DNA of 60,244 bases, the filler included, from Deltaproteobacteria bacterium (GTDB lineage: Bacteria; Myxococcota; JACRCW01), in the NCBI GenBank assembly GCA_016218805.1. It is 3 parts of 3 records of this genome, joined end to end, with 100 filler letters (N's around TTAATTAATTAA, not from the genome) between each part and the next. Parts side by side here need not be neighbours in the genome. Positions count along the whole stretch, not along the records: positions 41,693 to 60,244 come from JACRCW010000138.1; 2 more parts are not named here. One strand, given 5' to 3'. Positions 28,595 through 51,327 of this stretch are shown here, piece by piece (positions within the stretch are counted from its first letter, which is position 1; the number at the start of each line of letters is the position of its first letter). The notes under the pieces are model-generated. The model saw only the letters and a list, made by a program, of their open reading frames with translations. It had not been told where the DNA came from and did not search any database. A program made the translations under genes and the position numbers.

Positions 28595-28694
28595 NNNNNN
28601 NNNNNNNNNNNNNNNNNNNNNNNNNNNNNNNNNNNNNNTTAATTAATTAANNNNNNNNNNNNNNNNNNNNNNNNNNNNNNNNNNNNNNNNNNNN
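28595..28694. other. artificial contig linker
   Basis: 44 N + TTAATTAATTAA (stops in all six frames) + 44 N. Confidence 0.98.
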
Positions 28695-41592: not shown

Positions 41593-41692
41593 NNNNNNNN
41601 NNNNNNNNNNNNNNNNNNNNNNNNNNNNNNNNNNNNTTAATTAATTAANNNNNNNNNNNNNNNNNNNNNNNNNNNNNNNNNNNNNNNNNNNN
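41593..41692. other. artificial contig linker
   Basis: 44 N + TTAATTAATTAA + 44 N. Confidence 0.98.
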
Positions 41693-43155: not shown

Positions 43156-44094
43156 TCACCGCTGCGCCTTGCGGGCCGCCTCCACCAGCGTGGCCAGCGC
43201 ATCCAGCGCGGTGACGGGCGCTTCCCGGACTTCGCCCTGCTCGCTGTAGGTGGGGACCGGCAGGTCCGCGGGCGCCTCCAACCGCGGCGGCGGCGGCGCG
43301 GCCGCCACCTGCTTGGCCCCTGCCAATGACGACGCCTGCGCCAGGTACGGCCCCATGTTGGCACTGCCCTGGCCCAGCATCTCCATGGGCACCGGCAGCA
43401 CCACCGTGGTGTTCTGGTTGACGCTGACCTCCACCAGCGTCTGGTACAGCCGCAGCTGCATGGCGCCGGGGTGCACCGCCATCACCTCCGCCGCGGCGGC
43501 CAGCGTGCGCGCTGCCTGCTCTTCGCCCTGCGCGGCAATCACCTTGGCGCGGCGCTCGCGCTCCGCCTCCGCCTGCCGGGCCATGGCGCGCTTCATCTCC
43601 TGCGGCAGCACAATGTCCCGCAGCTCCACCGCGCTGATCTCCACGCCCCACTGCTCGGTGCGCTGGTCCAGGATGCTGCGAATCTCCTCATTGATCTTGT
43701 CCCGCTTGGAGAGGATCTCATCCAGGTCCATCCGCCCCAGCACGCCGCGCAGCGTGGTGGACGCCAGCTGCATGGTGGCGTCCAGGTACTCCTCCACCGC
43801 CAGCACCGCTTCCTTGGGCGCCTTCACGTCGGCGTAGACCACCGCATCCACCTTGATGCTGATGTTGTCCGCCGTGATGATCTCCTGCGGCTGGATGGGA
43901 ATGGCCTTGATGCGGATGTCCACCACCTTCATGCGGTCCATGCCCAGCGGCAGCAGGAACGCTACCCCCGGCCCCGCCATCTCCTTGCGCGCCCGCCCCA
44001 GGCGGAACACCACGCCGCGTTCGTACTCACGCAGAATGCGGAACCCGGTAAGGACCGTGACGCCAACACCAATGAGCAGAGCTTCCAGGATCAT
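43156..44094 (-). CDS. SPFH/stomatin (slipin) family protein
   Basis: EYERGVVFRLG, TTLRGVLG, AMARQAEAERERRAKVIAA and AMQLR motifs; GGAGGT SD. Confidence 0.93.
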   Translation of the reverse strand: MILEALLIGVGVTVLTGFRILREYERGVVFRLGRARKEMAGPGVAFLLPLGMDRMKVVDIRIKAIPIQPQEIITADNISIKVDAVVYADVKAPKEAVLAVEEYLDATMQLASTTLRGVLGRMDLDEILSKRDKINEEIRSILDQRTEQWGVEISAVELRDIVLPQEMKRAMARQAEAERERRAKVIAAQGEEQAARTLAAAAEVMAVHPGAMQLRLYQTLVEVSVNQNTTVVLPVPMEMLGQGSANMGPYLAQASSLAGAKQVAAAPPPPRLEAPADLPVPTYSEQGEVREAPVTALDALATLVEAARKAQR

Positions 44095-44309: not shown

Positions 44310-44431
44310 ATGAGCAGGCGCAGAACTTGGGCCGGGCTGGGCTTGGGAAGGTGGTGGAATCGGTCGCGTGTGTGTCGGGCGGCCGCACCGGTTGGGATAG
44401 GACGCCCTCCCTCCGCGGAAGGTGTCACACC
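44310..44431 (+). repeat. ~120-bp non-coding direct repeat, copy 1
   Basis: First 61 nt match copy 2 (47509 onward) at 58/61; similarity continues with small indels to ...gaaggtgtcaca. Confidence 0.9.
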
Positions 44432-44437
44432 AGCCCA

Positions 44438-44953
44438 TCAGCCGTTGGCGGGGGGGATGCCCGGGGGCGCCTTGGTGCCGCGGCTCGCGCGCGTCTTGAT
44501 GAACTCCGCCAGGAACGCAAACCGCTCCGCAAGCTCCGGGTGGTCGTCCGCCATCGCCCTGGCCAGTTCGTGGACCTTCAGGCACGTGCGCCAGACCTTG
44601 TCGTCGTAGGCCACCCGGGCGCCGCCCGCTTTGGCCAGGTCACGCGCCAGGCGTTCCTCGTCCTTCTGCAGCGCACTCGAATGCCCCAGCATCTCCTTCA
44701 TCTGGGCAGGCGTCAGCCCCAGCCGCGGCAGCACGTCAGCCATCTCAATGACGCCGTCCACCACCAGCGCTGCGCACTCCTCGTAATCGCGCGGCGGGTA
44801 GACCGGGTTGGCGGGCATCGGGACGATGGGCGCGCTGAACCCCGAGTTCGTGCGCGCCACCGCCGCCCCCTTTGCCGGGCGCTTCGTCCGCGCCATGGGT
44901 CCCCGCCGGGACACCTTCTTCTTGGCCACTTTCTTCTTCTTCTTCACCGCCAT
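44438..44953 (-). CDS. hypothetical 171-aa protein with Lys/Arg-rich N-terminus and helical core
   Basis: Strong GGAGGAG SD, MAVKKKKKVAKKKVSRR start, high GC3. Confidence 0.85.
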   Translation of the reverse strand: MAVKKKKKVAKKKVSRRGPMARTKRPAKGAAVARTNSGFSAPIVPMPANPVYPPRDYEECAALVVDGVIEMADVLPRLGLTPAQMKEMLGHSSALQKDEERLARDLAKAGGARVAYDDKVWRTCLKVHELARAMADDHPELAERFAFLAEFIKTRASRGTKAPPGIPPANG

Positions 44954-45031
44954 GGTCTCCTCCATTGGGCTGCATCCGTGCAGCAGGACCCTCATACACC
45001 ATCTCCCCCGTGGTGGGACCCCCCCGATCGG

Positions 45032-45237
45032 GGGGTCTCACCCCCTCAGGCATGGGGTCTCACCCCATCGGGTAGGGGATCACACCCCCTCGGGCAGGGG
45101 GTCACACCCCATCGGGCAGGGGGTCACACCCCATCGGGCAGGGGGTCACACCCCCTCGGGCATGGGGTCACACCCCCTCGGGCAGGGGGTCACACCCCCT
45201 CGGGCAGGGGGTCACACCCCCTCGGGCATGGGGTCTA
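45032..45237. repeat. tandem array of nine 22-bp palindromic units
   Basis: Units start at 45032, 45054, 45076, 45098, 45120, 45142, 45164, 45186 and 45208; consensus GGGGTCACACCCC(C/A)TCGGGCA(G/T). Confidence 0.97.
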
Positions 45238-47181
45238 CCGGCCGCGCCGCCGCCACCGGACCACCAGGCCCAGGAACAGCATGTACCCCAGCACGTTCGT
45301 GTCGGCGCAGTAGGAGTAGGTCTGGGTGGCCGCGCACGCCGCCTCCAGGCACACGCCGTCGGAACACGTGGCGCCGGCCGCGCACTGCTCGGACACTTCG
45401 CAGGACGCGCCGAGCGCCAGGCGCACCTGGCACACCGCACCGCCGTCTCCCCAACCGCAGTACGCCTCCGGCACGCAGCCTCCCTGGGACCCGCACGCCT
45501 GGCCCAGTGACCGCAGCGGGAGGCAGTGCAACTCGCTGCTGGCGTCGGGGTAGCCGCACCGGCTGTCGCGGCACTCGTAGTAGTAGCGGCAGGGTTCCCC
45601 CAGCGCGGGACCGGTCACGCACGTCCCCTCGCCCCCATCCCACGCGCACTGGAACCCCGGCGAGCACGCACCCATGCACGCATCCCCCGCCACGCCGCGC
45701 TCCGGGAGGTAGCAGCGGCCCACGCCGCCGTCGGTGGTCGCCGTGCACTGCGGGATGTCACCCACGTCCAGGTCGTAGCGGCACTGCGGCGGCACGTCCT
45801 GGCGCGCGCCGCACGCCTGCCCCAGGCGGGCGGGTGGCAGGCACGTTCCTTCGGTGGCGGACGCCGCCGGGCGCGCGCACGTGAAGCCCCACCGGCAGGT
45901 CCCCCGCGTCCCAAACGACGACGCCGGCGCCCGGCAGCCCGCTCCCACTTCGCCCGGGGCCTGGCACACCGGGGGATTGCCCGCGCACACCAGGCCGCCC
46001 CGGCAGTCATGCACGGGGTCCGCGCCGGACAGGTCATCCGTGCACGCCTCTCCCAGCGCCTTGCCCTGCACGCACGTCCCGTTGAAGCACACGCCCGGCG
46101 GGGCGCACCGGGCCGCGGTGCAGGGCTGGCCCACCAGGGCCGGCGCCGTGCAGGCGCCAGCGCCCCACGGCTCGGGCACGCGCGCACACAACAGGCACGC
46201 CTCGCATTCAGAATCACTGGTGCAGGTCTCACCCGCACCGGCCGGCGGGTGGCAGCGCCCGCCGCGACATACCAGCTCCTGCGCGCAATCCGTGGGCGCC
46301 TGGCAGCCCGCGTCCGCGCCCAGCCGGTCCCCGCATACGCCGCTGGAGCTGCACACCAGGCCCGTTTCACAGCTCTGCGCCGGCGGGTTGACCGCCTGGC
46401 AAGGTTGCCCGCGCGCGCCGGGCCGAATGCAGGTTCCCTCCGCCCCACTCCACGGCGCCGAGCAGGCCAGGCCCCGCGCGCACAGCCGGGCGCGCGGCAG
46501 GCCGCAGGGTTCGCCCTCCGTGGCGCTGGGGACGCAGTGCCCCTGGCAGCCCGCGCCGATGTCCACGCAGCTGGCGCCGCCGTCCCCGGGCGCGCATTCC
46601 ACGTGGTGCCCGCACGGCTCACCCAGCGGTTGCAGGCCGCGCACAAAGTCCAGGCACGCCGGCGGCAGGGTCAGCGCCAGCGCCCCCGCGGCCGCCGCCC
46701 GCTCCAGGAACGCCGCGTGGGAGCCGTCAGGCGCCAGTTCCGCCACGCCCAGGCGGTCGCACTCGGCCGCCAGCGGTGCGTCGTACGTCACGCGCCCGCG
46801 GTCCATCCCGTCCCGAATGACCTTCATGCTGGTCTGCCAATACCGGCGGTACGCTTCCACCTGGGTGTCGTCGGTTGGGGCGCCGTCGCACACCGCCTCC
46901 ACGAACCGCTCGTAGTCCACCAGCAGGGCTTCCGCGCGGGCCTCGTCGGACAGGGGCTGGAACCAGGGACAGGTCCCGGAGCGGCGGCTCTCCTCAAAGC
47001 CCAGGTAGGCAGCCTGGAACGCGGCCATCCCCACCGCGGTCTGCCGGCACAGCCCGTCCAGCGGGCTGCTGCCGCCCCCCGACGATGATGATGACGACGA
47101 GGTGCGCTCATCACCCGGGGCGCACGCTGCCCCGGACACCGCCGCCAACACGCACCACCCCACCCGCGCTGCCAGTCCCAT
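45235..47181 (-). CDS. Cys-rich repeat surface lipoprotein with C-terminal Cys-TM-Arg tail
   Basis: SGAAC lipobox, poly-Ser, many GxxC...C repeats; ends YCADTNVLGYMLFLGLVVRWRRRGR. Confidence 0.82.
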   Translation of the reverse strand: MGLAARVGWCVLAAVSGAACAPGDERTSSSSSSSGGGSSPLDGLCRQTAVGMAAFQAAYLGFEESRRSGTCPWFQPLSDEARAEALLVDYERFVEAVCDGAPTDDTQVEAYRRYWQTSMKVIRDGMDRGRVTYDAPLAAECDRLGVAELAPDGSHAAFLERAAAAGALALTLPPACLDFVRGLQPLGEPCGHHVECAPGDGGASCVDIGAGCQGHCVPSATEGEPCGLPRARLCARGLACSAPWSGAEGTCIRPGARGQPCQAVNPPAQSCETGLVCSSSGVCGDRLGADAGCQAPTDCAQELVCRGGRCHPPAGAGETCTSDSECEACLLCARVPEPWGAGACTAPALVGQPCTAARCAPPGVCFNGTCVQGKALGEACTDDLSGADPVHDCRGGLVCAGNPPVCQAPGEVGAGCRAPASSFGTRGTCRWGFTCARPAASATEGTCLPPARLGQACGARQDVPPQCRYDLDVGDIPQCTATTDGGVGRCYLPERGVAGDACMGACSPGFQCAWDGGEGTCVTGPALGEPCRYYYECRDSRCGYPDASSELHCLPLRSLGQACGSQGGCVPEAYCGWGDGGAVCQVRLALGASCEVSEQCAAGATCSDGVCLEAACAATQTYSYCADTNVLGYMLFLGLVVRWRRRGR

Positions 47182-47508: not shown

Positions 47509-47631
47509 ATGAGCAGGCGCAGGACTCGGGCCGGGCTGGGCTTGGGAGGGTGGTGGAATCGGTCGCGTGGTGTTGGGCGGCGGCCGCGCCGGTTGGGAAG
47601 GACGCCCCTCTCTCCGCGAAAAGTGTCTCAT
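47509..47631 (+). repeat. ~120-bp non-coding direct repeat, copy 2
   Basis: atgagcaggcgcag...ggtggtggaatcggtcgcgtg...aggacgccc...ctccgcg..aagtgtc aligns with 44310-44429. Confidence 0.9.
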
Positions 47632-47691: not shown

Positions 47692-49971
47692 TCACTCAAA
47701 GAACTTGAACTGACCCGTCTGGGCGCCGCGGCTGATCTGCCCGTCACAGAACACCCCGGCGGCGCAGGTGCCGGTGGGGGAGGCGCACGGCGGGTGCTGC
47801 ACCAGGTCAAACTGGAACAGCAGCCCCCCGCCCGCGGCAGCCAGCACGGCGATGGCGCGGTCACGCGTTTCCGTGGTGCCCAGGCCGGTGCTGACCACGG
47901 AGGGGATGACGGCGGTGGCCAGGCCGGTGGGCACGGCGCCGGCCGGGATGAAGCGGCCCTGCGTGGGGTTGATGTCATACGTGCGGATGACAAACGGGTC
48001 GAAGTTGCTCCGCATGGGGAGAACCAGCACCGCGTCCCGCGGGGGCAGGCTGCCGGAGGCGGCGCCGGTGGGGCTGCCGGCGGTGCCGCCGTCCACGGGG
48101 CGGGTATCCACAGGCGGGGGCGTTCCGCCGGTGTAGCCGGCGGGGAAGAGCTGGAAGCGCAGGCCGGGGACTTCCACCTCTTCCAGGAACGCCACGCGGC
48201 CAAAGCTGCGGCCGGACATCCCGCCGGTGAGCGTGAAGTGGTTGCGGGCGCGCACGCGGTACTGGATGCCGCCTTGGGCCACCAGGCACTGGCGGATGGA
48301 GAAGGTGCCTTCCAGGCGCAGCTGGCTGCCGGCCACTTCGGCAATGCGCAGGGAGGCGGCCACGGTGCAGGCCGGCTGCGAACTGGGGCACGGGCACGCC
48401 GCCTGGACGGGGACTTCAAACACGTCCCCTGCCTGCACCCCCAGCGCGCGCAGGTCCACGCCGCTGCGGCTGTCCGCCACCAGGTTGTCCAGCAGCTGCG
48501 CATCCGTGCTGCTGCCGGTGCGCTGCCCCAGTCCGGGCAGCACGCCTTCCCAGACCAGCACGTAGTCGTCGTCCAGGGCCTGCTTGACCACCGGCGGGGT
48601 GCCGGTGGCGTCCGTGGTGACGGACCACTCCACGCGCGGGCGGGTGGCCTGGTCCTGGTCCGTGAGCCCGGCGTCCGCCACCCCGCCGTCCGCCAGCGGC
48701 GCGTGCGGCACGCGGTAGTTGTCCAGCGAGCTGTTGAAGTCCAGCACCTGGCAGTCGCTGGTCAGCAGGGGCCCGGGCGGCATGCTGTTCTTGTCAATGA
48801 GGCGCGGCATGCGGCGGCGCTGGGCGTCTTCGGAATCCAGGTCCAGGTACGCCACGCTGCCGTCCACCAGGGCCACCAGCGCGTAGGCAAACCCGCCATT
48901 GGCCAGCGCTGAGGGGTCCACCTCAAACGGCACGCCCACGCAGCACTGCGGCGTGGGGTTGGGGGCCAGCGCCACCGCGGCGGCGTAGCCCGGCAGCATG
49001 ACCGTGGCCGCCAGGTGGTCAGCGTCAGACCGCATGCGGTGCACCCACGAATCCGCGGGCAGGTCCGTGGCGGGCTCATGGCGGAGGCGGACCACGGCCA
49101 CCGCGGGCAGGTCCCGGCGGAGGGCCACGGCGATGGGGTAGCGGGGTGCGTTTTCGCCAGGGCGGCCGGGGGCGGTGCCGAGCACGACCTCAGCGGTGGG
49201 GCCGCCCACGTCCACCTGGCAGGGGCGGGTGCCCGTGGCGTCACAGGCGGGGTAGGGGAGCGCCAGCGTGCCGGGGTCCGCGGCAGGGTCAAACAACGTG
49301 AGGGCATTGCCGTCCGCGTCCGACACCATGGCCACGGTGCCGTCCTCTGTCAGGGCAACACCGGAGGGCACGCCGGGGGCCTTGAACCGCGCGCGGGCGA
49401 CCACGTTGCCGTCGTTCCAGCGGATGACCTCCAGTTCGCCGCCGTCATCCGCGGCGTGGCTCACGGCCACCAGCAGGTCCGCCACGGTGCCGCGCACCGC
49501 CAGGCCAGTGGGCCGCGGGGCCAGGTCACCCACGTCATCCCCGTGGCGCTTCCAGGCGTTGCCCTCATGGGGGCCGCCCAGGTCAAAGAAGCGCAGGGTG
49601 CGGTCCGTGCGGTCCAGCGCCACCGCCAGCGTGCCGTCCGAGGCCACGGCAATGTCCTCCGTGTACGTGCCCAGCTTGACCGCCATGGGGAAGTACACGT
49701 TGGGGGCGGGCACCATCAGGCCATGCGTGAGGTCCACGGCGCGCGCCTGGCGCAGGTCCGGGTTCACGTTGACGGCGTACGCGGCGCCGCTGCGGTCCGG
49801 GCGCACGGCAATGGCCACGGAGGACGGCTTGTCCACGTTGCCGCTGCCCGGCGTGGTGTCCTGCGGGCAGAAGGTGGACAGCGGGCCCTGCGGCAGGCCG
49901 GTGGAGCAGGCCAGCAGGGTCATAAGCGGCGCGTGGGACACCACGCGGCGGAGCACGGGCGTGCGGCGCAT
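47692..49971 (-). CDS. large hypothetical lipoprotein with beta-propeller-like N-terminal region
   Basis: TLLAC lipobox; repeated P-x-G-[LV]-A-[LV] blade-like motifs. Confidence 0.7.
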   Translation of the reverse strand: MRRTPVLRRVVSHAPLMTLLACSTGLPQGPLSTFCPQDTTPGSGNVDKPSSVAIAVRPDRSGAAYAVNVNPDLRQARAVDLTHGLMVPAPNVYFPMAVKLGTYTEDIAVASDGTLAVALDRTDRTLRFFDLGGPHEGNAWKRHGDDVGDLAPRPTGLAVRGTVADLLVAVSHAADDGGELEVIRWNDGNVVARARFKAPGVPSGVALTEDGTVAMVSDADGNALTLFDPAADPGTLALPYPACDATGTRPCQVDVGGPTAEVVLGTAPGRPGENAPRYPIAVALRRDLPAVAVVRLRHEPATDLPADSWVHRMRSDADHLAATVMLPGYAAAVALAPNPTPQCCVGVPFEVDPSALANGGFAYALVALVDGSVAYLDLDSEDAQRRRMPRLIDKNSMPPGPLLTSDCQVLDFNSSLDNYRVPHAPLADGGVADAGLTDQDQATRPRVEWSVTTDATGTPPVVKQALDDDYVLVWEGVLPGLGQRTGSSTDAQLLDNLVADSRSGVDLRALGVQAGDVFEVPVQAACPCPSSQPACTVAASLRIAEVAGSQLRLEGTFSIRQCLVAQGGIQYRVRARNHFTLTGGMSGRSFGRVAFLEEVEVPGLRFQLFPAGYTGGTPPPVDTRPVDGGTAGSPTGAASGSLPPRDAVLVLPMRSNFDPFVIRTYDINPTQGRFIPAGAVPTGLATAVIPSVVSTGLGTTETRDRAIAVLAAAGGGLLFQFDLVQHPPCASPTGTCAAGVFCDGQISRGAQTGQFKFFE

Positions 49972-49974
49972 GGC

Positions 49975-51327
49975 TCAGCCTCCCCCCAGGATGGGCAGTT
50001 CCGGCAGGACGCCGGGAAGCTGCGGGTTGGTGGAGCCGGTGTCCCGCGGGGTGCCCAGGCGCGCCACCACGCGCAAGCGCGTGTCCCCCGCGTGGCGCGG
50101 CAGGCCAATGACCGCCACCGTGTCATCCTGGAAGCACGTCACGTAGGCCAGCGCCCGGGCCGAATCCACCGCGATGTTGAACGGCCCTGCGCCGACGTCC
50201 CGCAGGGCGCCCACGGGCACCAGGGTGTCCAGGTCCAGCGCGAACAGCACGTTGTCCCGGAACGACGCGACCAGCACCAGCGGGGAGGCCGGCGCGGGTG
50301 CGGCGGGGTCACGCGAGGCGGTGGGTTCAAACAGCGCCACCACGGAGGGCTCCTTCCCCAGCGGCGCCACGCGCGTGACGGTGTCACCGGGCAGCCCGTT
50401 GGGGCGGCGGCTGACGTCCAGCTCAATGATGGAGGCGGGGATCTTGCTGATCACGTACGCCCGCTGCCCGTCCGCGCGGAACGCCACGCCGCGGGTGTCC
50501 GCCGTGCCGGCCTGCTCCAGCAGGTTGATGGCCAGCACCTGCGCGTTCTCCTCATCCGCAATGCGGAAGTAGCGCAGCGTCCCCAGCTGGCTGCCGTCAC
50601 CCGGCAGGTCCCGCCCGGTGGCAAACAGGTACTCCGGCTGCCCGTCCACGGAGGGCAGCAGCGCCAGGCTGCCGCCGCGCAGCGTGTCTGACAGGTTGCG
50701 GCTCCACCCAATGGAGAGGCGCGCGGCGCCTGAGCGCAGCGGGAAGAAGTCCACCGCCATCACCTGCCCGCCGCGCAGCATGCCCAAAAAGACGCGCGTG
50801 TGGTCGCCTTCGCGGTGCAGCGCCATGCCGTAGGGGTCCGTCAGCCCGGTGGCCAGCACGTGGTCATTGTCCGAACAGTCCTCCAGGCCATCCGTCATGC
50901 GCCCCCCGCATGACAGCGACGGGCCGTCCAGGCCGGTGGCCACGTCCAGCTGGATGAGCCGGTTGTCTTCGCTGGTCAGGTGCAGCAGCGCGGCGCCGTC
51001 CTCCGTGGCCAGCAACGACCCACCGAACGACGGCACCCGCACGGCGGCCTGCCACGGGTCCGCCACGGGGTCACCCAGCGTGTCATTCAGCGCCAGGTAC
51101 GCATGCAGCCAGGACAGGTCCGCGGCCACCACCGCGCCGCTGCTGTAGGTGCTGTCAAAGTTGCTGCTGGCCACAAACAGCAGGGGCGCATTCGGGTGCA
51201 GCGCAATGCCGGTGGGGAAGTGCAGCGCGGTGACCGGGCTGCCCGGCGGGGCAAACGGGTCCGGGCACTGCGCACAACCCGAGGCGGCGCACAGCAGCGC
51301 CCAGAGACCGAGACGACGAGGAGCCAT
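49975..51327 (-). CDS. YncE/YVTN-like beta-propeller lipoprotein
   Basis: ASGC lipobox; LHFPTGIAL, VASSNFD, DPYGMAL, GPFNIAVD and AYVTCF blade motifs. Confidence 0.78.
   Translation of the reverse strand: MAPRRLGLWALLCAASGCAQCPDPFAPPGSPVTALHFPTGIALHPNAPLLFVASSNFDSTYSSGAVVAADLSWLHAYLALNDTLGDPVADPWQAAVRVPSFGGSLLATEDGAALLHLTSEDNRLIQLDVATGLDGPSLSCGGRMTDGLEDCSDNDHVLATGLTDPYGMALHREGDHTRVFLGMLRGGQVMAVDFFPLRSGAARLSIGWSRNLSDTLRGGSLALLPSVDGQPEYLFATGRDLPGDGSQLGTLRYFRIADEENAQVLAINLLEQAGTADTRGVAFRADGQRAYVISKIPASIIELDVSRRPNGLPGDTVTRVAPLGKEPSVVALFEPTASRDPAAPAPASPLVLVASFRDNVLFALDLDTLVPVGALRDVGAGPFNIAVDSARALAYVTCFQDDTVAVIGLPRHAGDTRLRVVARLGTPRDTGSTNPQLPGVLPELPILGGG

Follow-up and report, generated by a model that had tools for sequence, protein, structure and literature searches.

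Non-coding tandem arrays with units of 20-23 nt, constant in size and variable in sequence, with several families per genome, are described in the accessible text of the surveys by Subirana and Messeguer (PMC8161180, PMC6749651), where an unknown protein polymerising on the arrays is proposed and no answer is given as to what preserves the length, yet not the sequence, of certain bacterial tandem repeats (PMC8161180). According to the consulted part of another source, the spacing in sopC is 43 bp, i.e., four helical turns, and the site is bound by SopB (PMC3177203). BrickBuilt, a minisatellite MITE of Porphyromonas gingivalis, is represented, in the available text, by intergenic 23-nt tandem units with dispersed copies, which form one sequence family with a leader, a tail and inverted ends (PMC4596501). 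The locus considered here is best read as a stand-alone module, namely, a gene of a small non-enzymatic all-helical protein and a private adjacent array of ~100-300 bp with units at whole helical turns, which would work like sopC-SopB but would not be a partition system.

The window, i.e., the whole analysed stretch of 60,244 nucleotides, comprises three contigs linked by N spacers (padding at 28595-28694 and 41593-41692, not biological). The contig bearing the array, C108, belongs to a 6.43-Mb genome of 170 contigs (G000). Analysis with TRF showed the presence of a non-coding tandem array at 45031..45235 (no strand assigned) with a period of 22 bp (two helical turns), 9.3 copies, 91% matches, a score of 333 and a two-fold symmetric G/C-run core in each unit; TRF scores did not exceed 76 in 500 simulated 2-kb sequences of matched dinucleotide composition, and the 22-bp array is real, well beyond chance. 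Phased 22-bp palindromic units had been reported in the initial annotation, and the period, the unit layout (7-bp arm, 3-nt centre, 7-bp arm, then 5-bp spacer) and the greatest degeneracy of units 1-3, closest to the small gene, were all recovered. The degenerate end nearest the small gene (45017..45035, no strand assigned, from the sequence and its register listing) holds the palindrome C6-GATC-G6, found at 45020-45035, where a cap had been placed. The reported edges agree as well: a partial tenth unit overlaps the TAG stop codon (45235-45237) of a Cys-rich gene, and the array stops 78 bp from the ATG of the small gene at 44953, for a gap given earlier as ~80 bp. Unique spacers of a CRISPR array are absent from these units, which stand head-to-tail with a constant 5-bp linker.

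Both junctions of the array are carried by contigs of four DNA runs from one study, among which the source run may be included, while the whole array is spanned by none of the junction-bearing contigs listed from those runs. An assembly artefact is unlikely, given these junctions and the sister arrays elsewhere in the genome; the 9.3 copies are those of the assembly.

Symmetry of the unit proved less telling than had been proposed. The left-arm change G>T is present in full units 2 and 7, and the right-arm change C>A in units 2, 4 and 5; accordingly, the nine full units contain one double and three single-sided mirror changes, with ~0.7 doubles expected by chance (hand count), and the selection on symmetry that had been read from unit 2 was not borne out, there being no co-variation. 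The palindrome of the unit gave p=0.03 in a letter shuffle, 0.19 in a run shuffle that kept homopolymer runs and 0.18 in a column permutation, and exceeds the G/C-run composition only marginally. Near-identical 22-bp units were found on contigs C163, C162 and C128, with C114 joined weakly; the C163 unit is nearly equal to the C108 unit, with the 3-nt centre inverted relative to the spacer. Neither these mirror variants nor the centre inversion need selection, because template switching between inverted arms, in the part of the source consulted, yields both (PMC8604942).

The small gene (44438..44953, minus strand) encodes P0001, a 171-aa all-helical orphan protein of an unnamed multi-phylum family with a length of ~155 aa, and is preceded by a purine run at 44957..44963 (minus strand in the sequence), which we take to be Shine-Dalgarno-like. 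P0001 has a disordered N-terminal tail rich in K/R and helices at residues 57-70, 82-133, 139-144 and 146-158; the AlphaFold2 model is all-helical (pLDDT 85, pTM 0.59), with a 52-residue central helix and the disordered basic tail. No match to P0001 was found in Pfam, NCBIfam, PADLOC or PHROGs, the last two matching 0/19 proteins, nor was any match obtained by Foldseek at E<=0.001 in PDB or BFVD; the best VIA Z was 5.9 (rmsd 4.1, 57 aligned). The absence of Pfam and NCBIfam matches extends to proteins of the ParB/HTH and RHH types; the fold comparisons, with no clear match, argue neither for nor against these types, and no invariant catalytic-type residue was detected in the aligned P0001 family.

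Homologues of P0001 are represented by three close relatives and a wide distant family: a profile of 36 family sequences gave 72 matches, from Myxococcales, Ignavibacteria, Bacteroidota, Armatimonas, cyanobacteria and Verrucomicrobiota, and an Atlas search with P0001 returned unnamed Myxococcota clusters only; the source organism is presumably an uncultured myxobacterium. The myxobacterial-type and Bacteroidota-type groups are homologous, since their profiles align in hhalign with a probability of 97% and E 6e-11 over 123 columns. The description of the product as a basic protein holds for P0001 itself (net charge +13) but not for the family, the medians of which are -1 (n=29) and -2 (n=80, the best 80 of at least 531 loci); only 11% of the Bacteroidota-type group (n=80, the best 80 of at least 531) have a positive net charge, and the basic tail is lineage-specific.

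The coupling of family genes with arrays was assessed by one rule, namely, a TRF score >=80, a length >=60, a period of 20-23, 41-45 or 63-66 and a distance within 450 bp of the gene. Arrays were found at 18/31 loci of the own phylum (three own genes included) vs 433 of the 5,094 genes of the own genome, with control periods at 1/31. Without the own genes, 15 of the 28 own-phylum relatives have an array, upstream in 14 cases, vs 32/878 control tiles, for which 399 kb were taken from the genomes of three of these relatives. In the Bacteroidota-type branch, represented by 80 loci of Bacteroidota, cyanobacterial, spirochaete and other relatives (the best 80 of at least 531 GTDB loci), an array adjoins 55/80 genes, vs 15/778 distal tiles of the same loci; 54 of these best 80 of at least 531 have a 21/42/63-bp array within 450 bp downstream, and control periods occur near 3/80 (again the best 80 of at least 531). 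At the threshold used, no array was found in 25/80 relatives (the best 80 of at least 531) and in 13/28. Both own paralogues of P0001 have adjoining arrays, and the closest homologue with a locus has an array of 44 bp x 3.1, with no 22-bp sequence repeat, in the same place, 9 bp after a different upstream gene and among other neighbours. The absence of adjacent periodic arrays from homologues had been named in the initial annotation as grounds for giving up its proposal of an undescribed array-plus-protein system; homologues do have such arrays, their genes adjoining periodic repeats, and the proposal is supported.

Array sequence turns over rapidly relative to the protein: mean 8-mer sharing is 0.09 for proteins >70% identical and 0.02 below 45% identity. 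The period is kept while the sequence turns over, and selection is therefore implied. No flanking protein family occurs in more than 5/80 loci (the best 80 of at least 531), and there is no conserved third gene in the module. Relatives' arrays are non-coding: for 67 period-21 arrays of 76, open frames numbered 36 on the gene's strand, with 33 expected from shuffles, and 37 vs 35 on the other strand, and coding of heptads by the 21-bp arrays was rejected, the open frames occurring at the shuffled rate. Two-fold symmetry is significant in 48/70 gene-linked arrays, 6/76 having been dropped by hand as weak or distant. The array mostly lies upstream of the gene in the own phylum and downstream in the Bacteroidota-type branch; this placement on either side, together with the inverted unit centre of C108 and C163, fits a double-stranded site.

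Genome-wide, a TRF scan with codon-model gene calls (5,094 genes) revealed 126 non-coding arrays with a period near multiples of the helical turn, of which 68, in 41 sequence families, passed a strict filter (score at least 150, coding-like arrays removed). The best lags of the 68 are 21, 22, 42-44, 62-68 and 83-88, corresponding to 10.3-11.3 bp per turn. Two-fold symmetry is significant in only 16/48 of the own arrays, 20/68 having been left out for low regularity. The locus and its genome thus belong to the class of Subirana and Messeguer, both by the presence of at least four non-coding 20-23 nt units (here 9.3 x 22 bp, intergenic) and by same-size families of different sequence in one genome (68 arrays, 41 families). 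Beside 24/68 strict arrays, proteins of 140-310 aa rich in Ala, Glu, Leu, Lys and Arg are encoded, picked by eye, so that the count is descriptive; no Pfam match above the cut-off was obtained for the 20 of these proteins that were scanned. In a check less prone to such bias, phmmer added 11 homologues, 5 of which have an array vs a background of 8.5% (binomial p=0.0013); kin are not independent, and the p-values overstate.

Approximately 12 orphan protein families are found beside arrays in this genome, some of them DUF6261-like; one such protein matches DUF6261 at E 2.5e-4 (below the cut-off) with an Atlas TM of 0.54. The structures nearest to its model are generic bundles, with Z reaching 8.7 (rmsd 12.1, 184 aligned), a value as uninformative as the Z of 5.9 for P0001. 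The DUF6261 (PF19775) profile does not match P0001, the two being not detectably homologous; it represents a parallel module, 7/10 DUF6261 genes from three genomes likewise having an upstream 41/42-bp array. A period score per array, i.e., the 21/22-bp signal relative to the 41-44-bp signal, is far more alike within families than chance would give (permutation p=2e-4 for 31 own gene-array pairs in 12 families; p=4.5e-4 after one duplicate was dropped and weak links were split), although array sequence is unrelated in 33/34 within-family pairs and shared in 1/34. Outside the genome, the 21/22-bp signal was detected in 55/64 arrays of the 155-aa family, with 9/64 lacking it, and in 0/7 DUF6261 arrays. 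Which period class an array belongs to, 21/22 or 41-44 bp, goes with the protein family; the 44-bp array of the closest homologue and the C78 array are exceptions. One superfamily for all partner proteins found no support in family comparisons. The 52-residue helix of P0001, at the usual rise, is ~78 A long, and 22 bp measure ~75 A; a ruler made of a single helix was nevertheless set aside, as the longest helix in the model of the 43-bp class has 27 residues and none is twice as long as that of 52.

These regularities are most simply accounted for by phased-oligomer binding, because of the whole-turn period, free sequence, frequent two-fold symmetry, indifference to the side of the gene and a period set by the family. 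The partner protein may assemble in phase, as an oligomer, along the duplex of the array, in the manner of SopB on sopC, a reading to which we give about even odds. The protein would oligomerise and bind the double-stranded array with one oligomer per unit on one helix face; spacing would be set by protein geometry, site and protein would drift together, and the resulting nucleoprotein patch might regulate or insulate its gene. Gene-less sister arrays on C163, C162 and C128 would then be relics or copies that could be served in trans. Against binding by the partner stand the neutral or acidic character of most members and the absence of a recognised DNA-binding domain, as well as the existence of members without arrays and of arrays without genes.

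The position of the arrays allows another interpretation, in which one transcript would cover gene and array, the latter forming consecutive hairpins to be bound or processed by the protein or a nuclease, comparable to a type III antitoxin array or a protein-sponge RNA. Of the array sides that face a stop codon, 26/71 lie within 30 bp of it, vs 5/52 of those that face a start, and arrays hugging stop codons fit an RNA-level role too. The array strand folds at -141.8 kcal/mol (z -6.8), although symmetric repeats of any kind fold well vs shuffles; a sigma-70-like promoter was not found between the Cys-rich and the small gene, and Bacillus satellites are reported as transcribed in the accessible part of one study (PMC8625621). 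However, a strict period in multiples of 10.5-11 bp is a feature of the DNA duplex, the arrays may stand on either side of the gene and show strand bias neither in purines (0.51) nor in G+T (0.52), and Rfam gave no match. Such an RNA module is unlikely, but it is the alternative to be considered first.

Phased-oligomer binding by the adjacent product also has to be weighed against binding by some other factor of the host, e.g., a nucleoid protein or a regulator, which all arrays would share, with the array as its platform and the adjacent genes only its usual targets. No partner-type gene lies beside 44/68 strict arrays, the neighbours being unrelated; next to the sister arrays, genes for a phosphoribosyltransferase, CheW, a spermidine synthase-domain protein and signal peptidase II were found. 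Short words, e.g., AAAAG and TCCGA, recur in otherwise unrelated arrays, and a shared factor would also suit partner proteins that are mostly not basic. It leaves unexplained, however, both the 41 sequence families and the period class that follows the protein family within one genome, and is rather doubtful.

Genes and arrays have been copied jointly to unrelated sites in the genome. The C78 and C42 copies share 89% identity, and at C42 a foreign gene separates the gene from its array; those on C159 and C19 are 94% identical, with the likeness stopping at the stop codon and the 5' end replaced by foreign DNA at C19. Gene remnants were found on C44 and C98 beside array sequence resembling the C54 and C143 arrays, and a remnant of the C35 gene on C76 beside a related array; some gene-less arrays are therefore relics. 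At C78:23163, C135, C75 and C110, the array alone seems to have been copied. A selfish or neutral by-product would suit the recent copies at unrelated sites, such remnants, foreign DNA between gene and array, and proteins that are 94% identical but have unshared flanks. In this reading, some unknown process would copy the module, and the array, with no part in binding, would be a trace left by that process or by slippage; mirror variants and an inverted centre are likewise template-switching products in the consulted part of the literature (PMC8604942). On the other hand, inspection of four duplicate pairs by eye revealed neither terminal repeats nor target duplications, the aligned family is without an invariant catalytic-type residue, and the period is kept amid sequence turnover, even where 8-mer sharing averages 0.09 (above 70% protein identity). 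A by-product without a binding role is, accordingly, improbable.

Anatomically, the module resembles the F-plasmid sopC-SopB pair, as far as the latter is covered by the available text, in its tandem units at whole helical turns, a palindrome in each and the position beside a protein gene (PMC3177203), features that would also suit a binding protein paired with its partition centromere or replication iteron. Helically phased palindromes are indeed present, although statistically weak for the 22-bp unit. In contrast to sopC-SopB, there is no ParA partner, the module is chromosomal, dozens of arrays occur per genome with unconserved sequence, and the protein is predicted to be all-helical, with no ParB/HTH family match. 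Pfam analysis of contig neighbours detected neither an adjacent NTPase (ParA, ParM, TubZ) nor, for an iteron, an adjacent Rep gene, and the plasmid search pointed to no plasmid replicon; the statement that no Rep, ParA/ParM, Cas or transposase gene lies near the array was confirmed, none of these families being found by Pfam among the scanned genes of C108. No neighbour is conserved at the 80 loci (the best 80 of at least 531). The Bacteroidota-type family member searched matched 1/72,556 plasmids and 0/50,697 phage records, no viral contig bearing the family was found, and IMG/VR gave none with the Bacteroidota-type query; in the collections searched with this query the family appears to be chromosomal, and the plasmid centromere or iteron of the initial annotation is most improbable.

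Comparison with the remaining known kinds leads to the same separation. No flank similarity was found among the C108, C163, C162 and C128 arrays, and a leader, tail or terminal inverted repeats of the MITE type were not encountered. REP/BIME elements with RAYT are palindromic repeats near stop codons, some located by a cognate gene and others dispersed; unlike them, the module has a partner without a Pfam match to HUH transposases, and its units stand head-to-tail at a fixed helical period. For a type III toxin-antitoxin system (ToxN/CptN/TenpN with a pseudoknot RNA array), no match was found in Pfam, NCBIfam, PADLOC or Rfam. BrickBuilt, as described in the accessible text, shares intergenic tandem units and dispersed copies but consists of a single sequence family that has a leader, a tail and inverted ends (PMC4596501), whereas here there are 41 families, the C108 array has no shared flanks, and a partner gene is present. 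The module thus stands apart from partition systems, iterons, MITEs, REP/RAYT, type III toxin-antitoxin systems and CRISPR, since membership fails for each. The available text of Subirana and Messeguer names no partner gene (PMC8161180, PMC6749651), and here arrays are accompanied by adjacent all-helical genes; a 41-44 bp class and a period following the protein family are further differences. Taken by themselves, the DNA arrays fall into a class that has been catalogued before; it is the gene-array module for which no description was found in the mainly non-subscription literature searched, and survey supplements could list neighbouring genes.

For the fixed-length question, candidate proteins can now be named, each paired with its own array in cultured organisms; Maribellus, Pedobacter and Amazonocrinis are cultured carriers among the records. 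If the proteins bind, they and their arrays would amount to a large library of orthogonal pairs, in which the family sets the spacing and the protein has no DNA-binding domain of a recognised kind; DUF6261 would gain a function. More generally, and tentatively, constant-length satellites might supply the DNA to a large and undescribed class of nucleoprotein modules with one gene each. Many unrelated all-helical families would polymerise as rulers, each on its own helically phased array and with two or four turns per unit depending on the family; the modules would spread as units without an enzyme of their own and leave orphan arrays organising or regulating other loci. This generalisation is somewhat less probable than binding itself.

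CRISPR-like arrays with periods of 71-73 and 61 bp were found in the genome at C59:44220-45848, C97:34754-35272 and C113:35309-36069, that of C113 directly upstream of one helical partner gene. A high-copy MITE-like element of ~220 bp occurs at C31:447-668 and ~15 other places, many of them contig ends, with 90-97% identity; at C10, C31 and C54 it directly follows a helical partner gene or the array of such a gene. On C10 and C59 and at C96:46345, C143:42217, C15:23204 and C72:9569, arrays border ATPase-like, Uma2 nuclease or RtcB-like genes, which suggests that modules are located in accessory or defence-type regions, the labels except Uma2 having been read by eye. In genome G006, hexamer arrays of the CCGCTC type (L005:2005-2123, L009) adjoin family genes; the short ORF after the L005 hexamer array may, we assume, be a candidate four-helix-bundle gene. 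Directly after the closest homologue, a short ORF (L183:3149-3559) lies between inverted repeats and is presumably IS200/REP-type transposase-like.

The flanking genes of the array lie outside the module. Downstream, an SPFH/Band 7 gene is encoded at 43156..44094 (minus strand); upstream, the Cys-rich gene at 45235..47028 (minus strand), the stop codon of which abuts the array, has its start set by the codon model, the ORF being open further. This gene, with weak EB/Dickkopf similarity, is the first of three large same-strand genes (45235-47028, 47692-49971 and 49975-51327) without significant Pfam matches, which probably encode secreted proteins. A dispersed repeat of ~120 bp, with five genome copies, is present after the small gene and before the Cys-rich gene (window 44310-44370 and 47509-47569, a 61-bp core with 95% identity). 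A low-depth contig of run X1 matches window 44436-44593, the 3' end of the small gene, with 10 differences; the match ends at the stop codon, and the contig is possibly a close copy of the 171-aa gene in another context.
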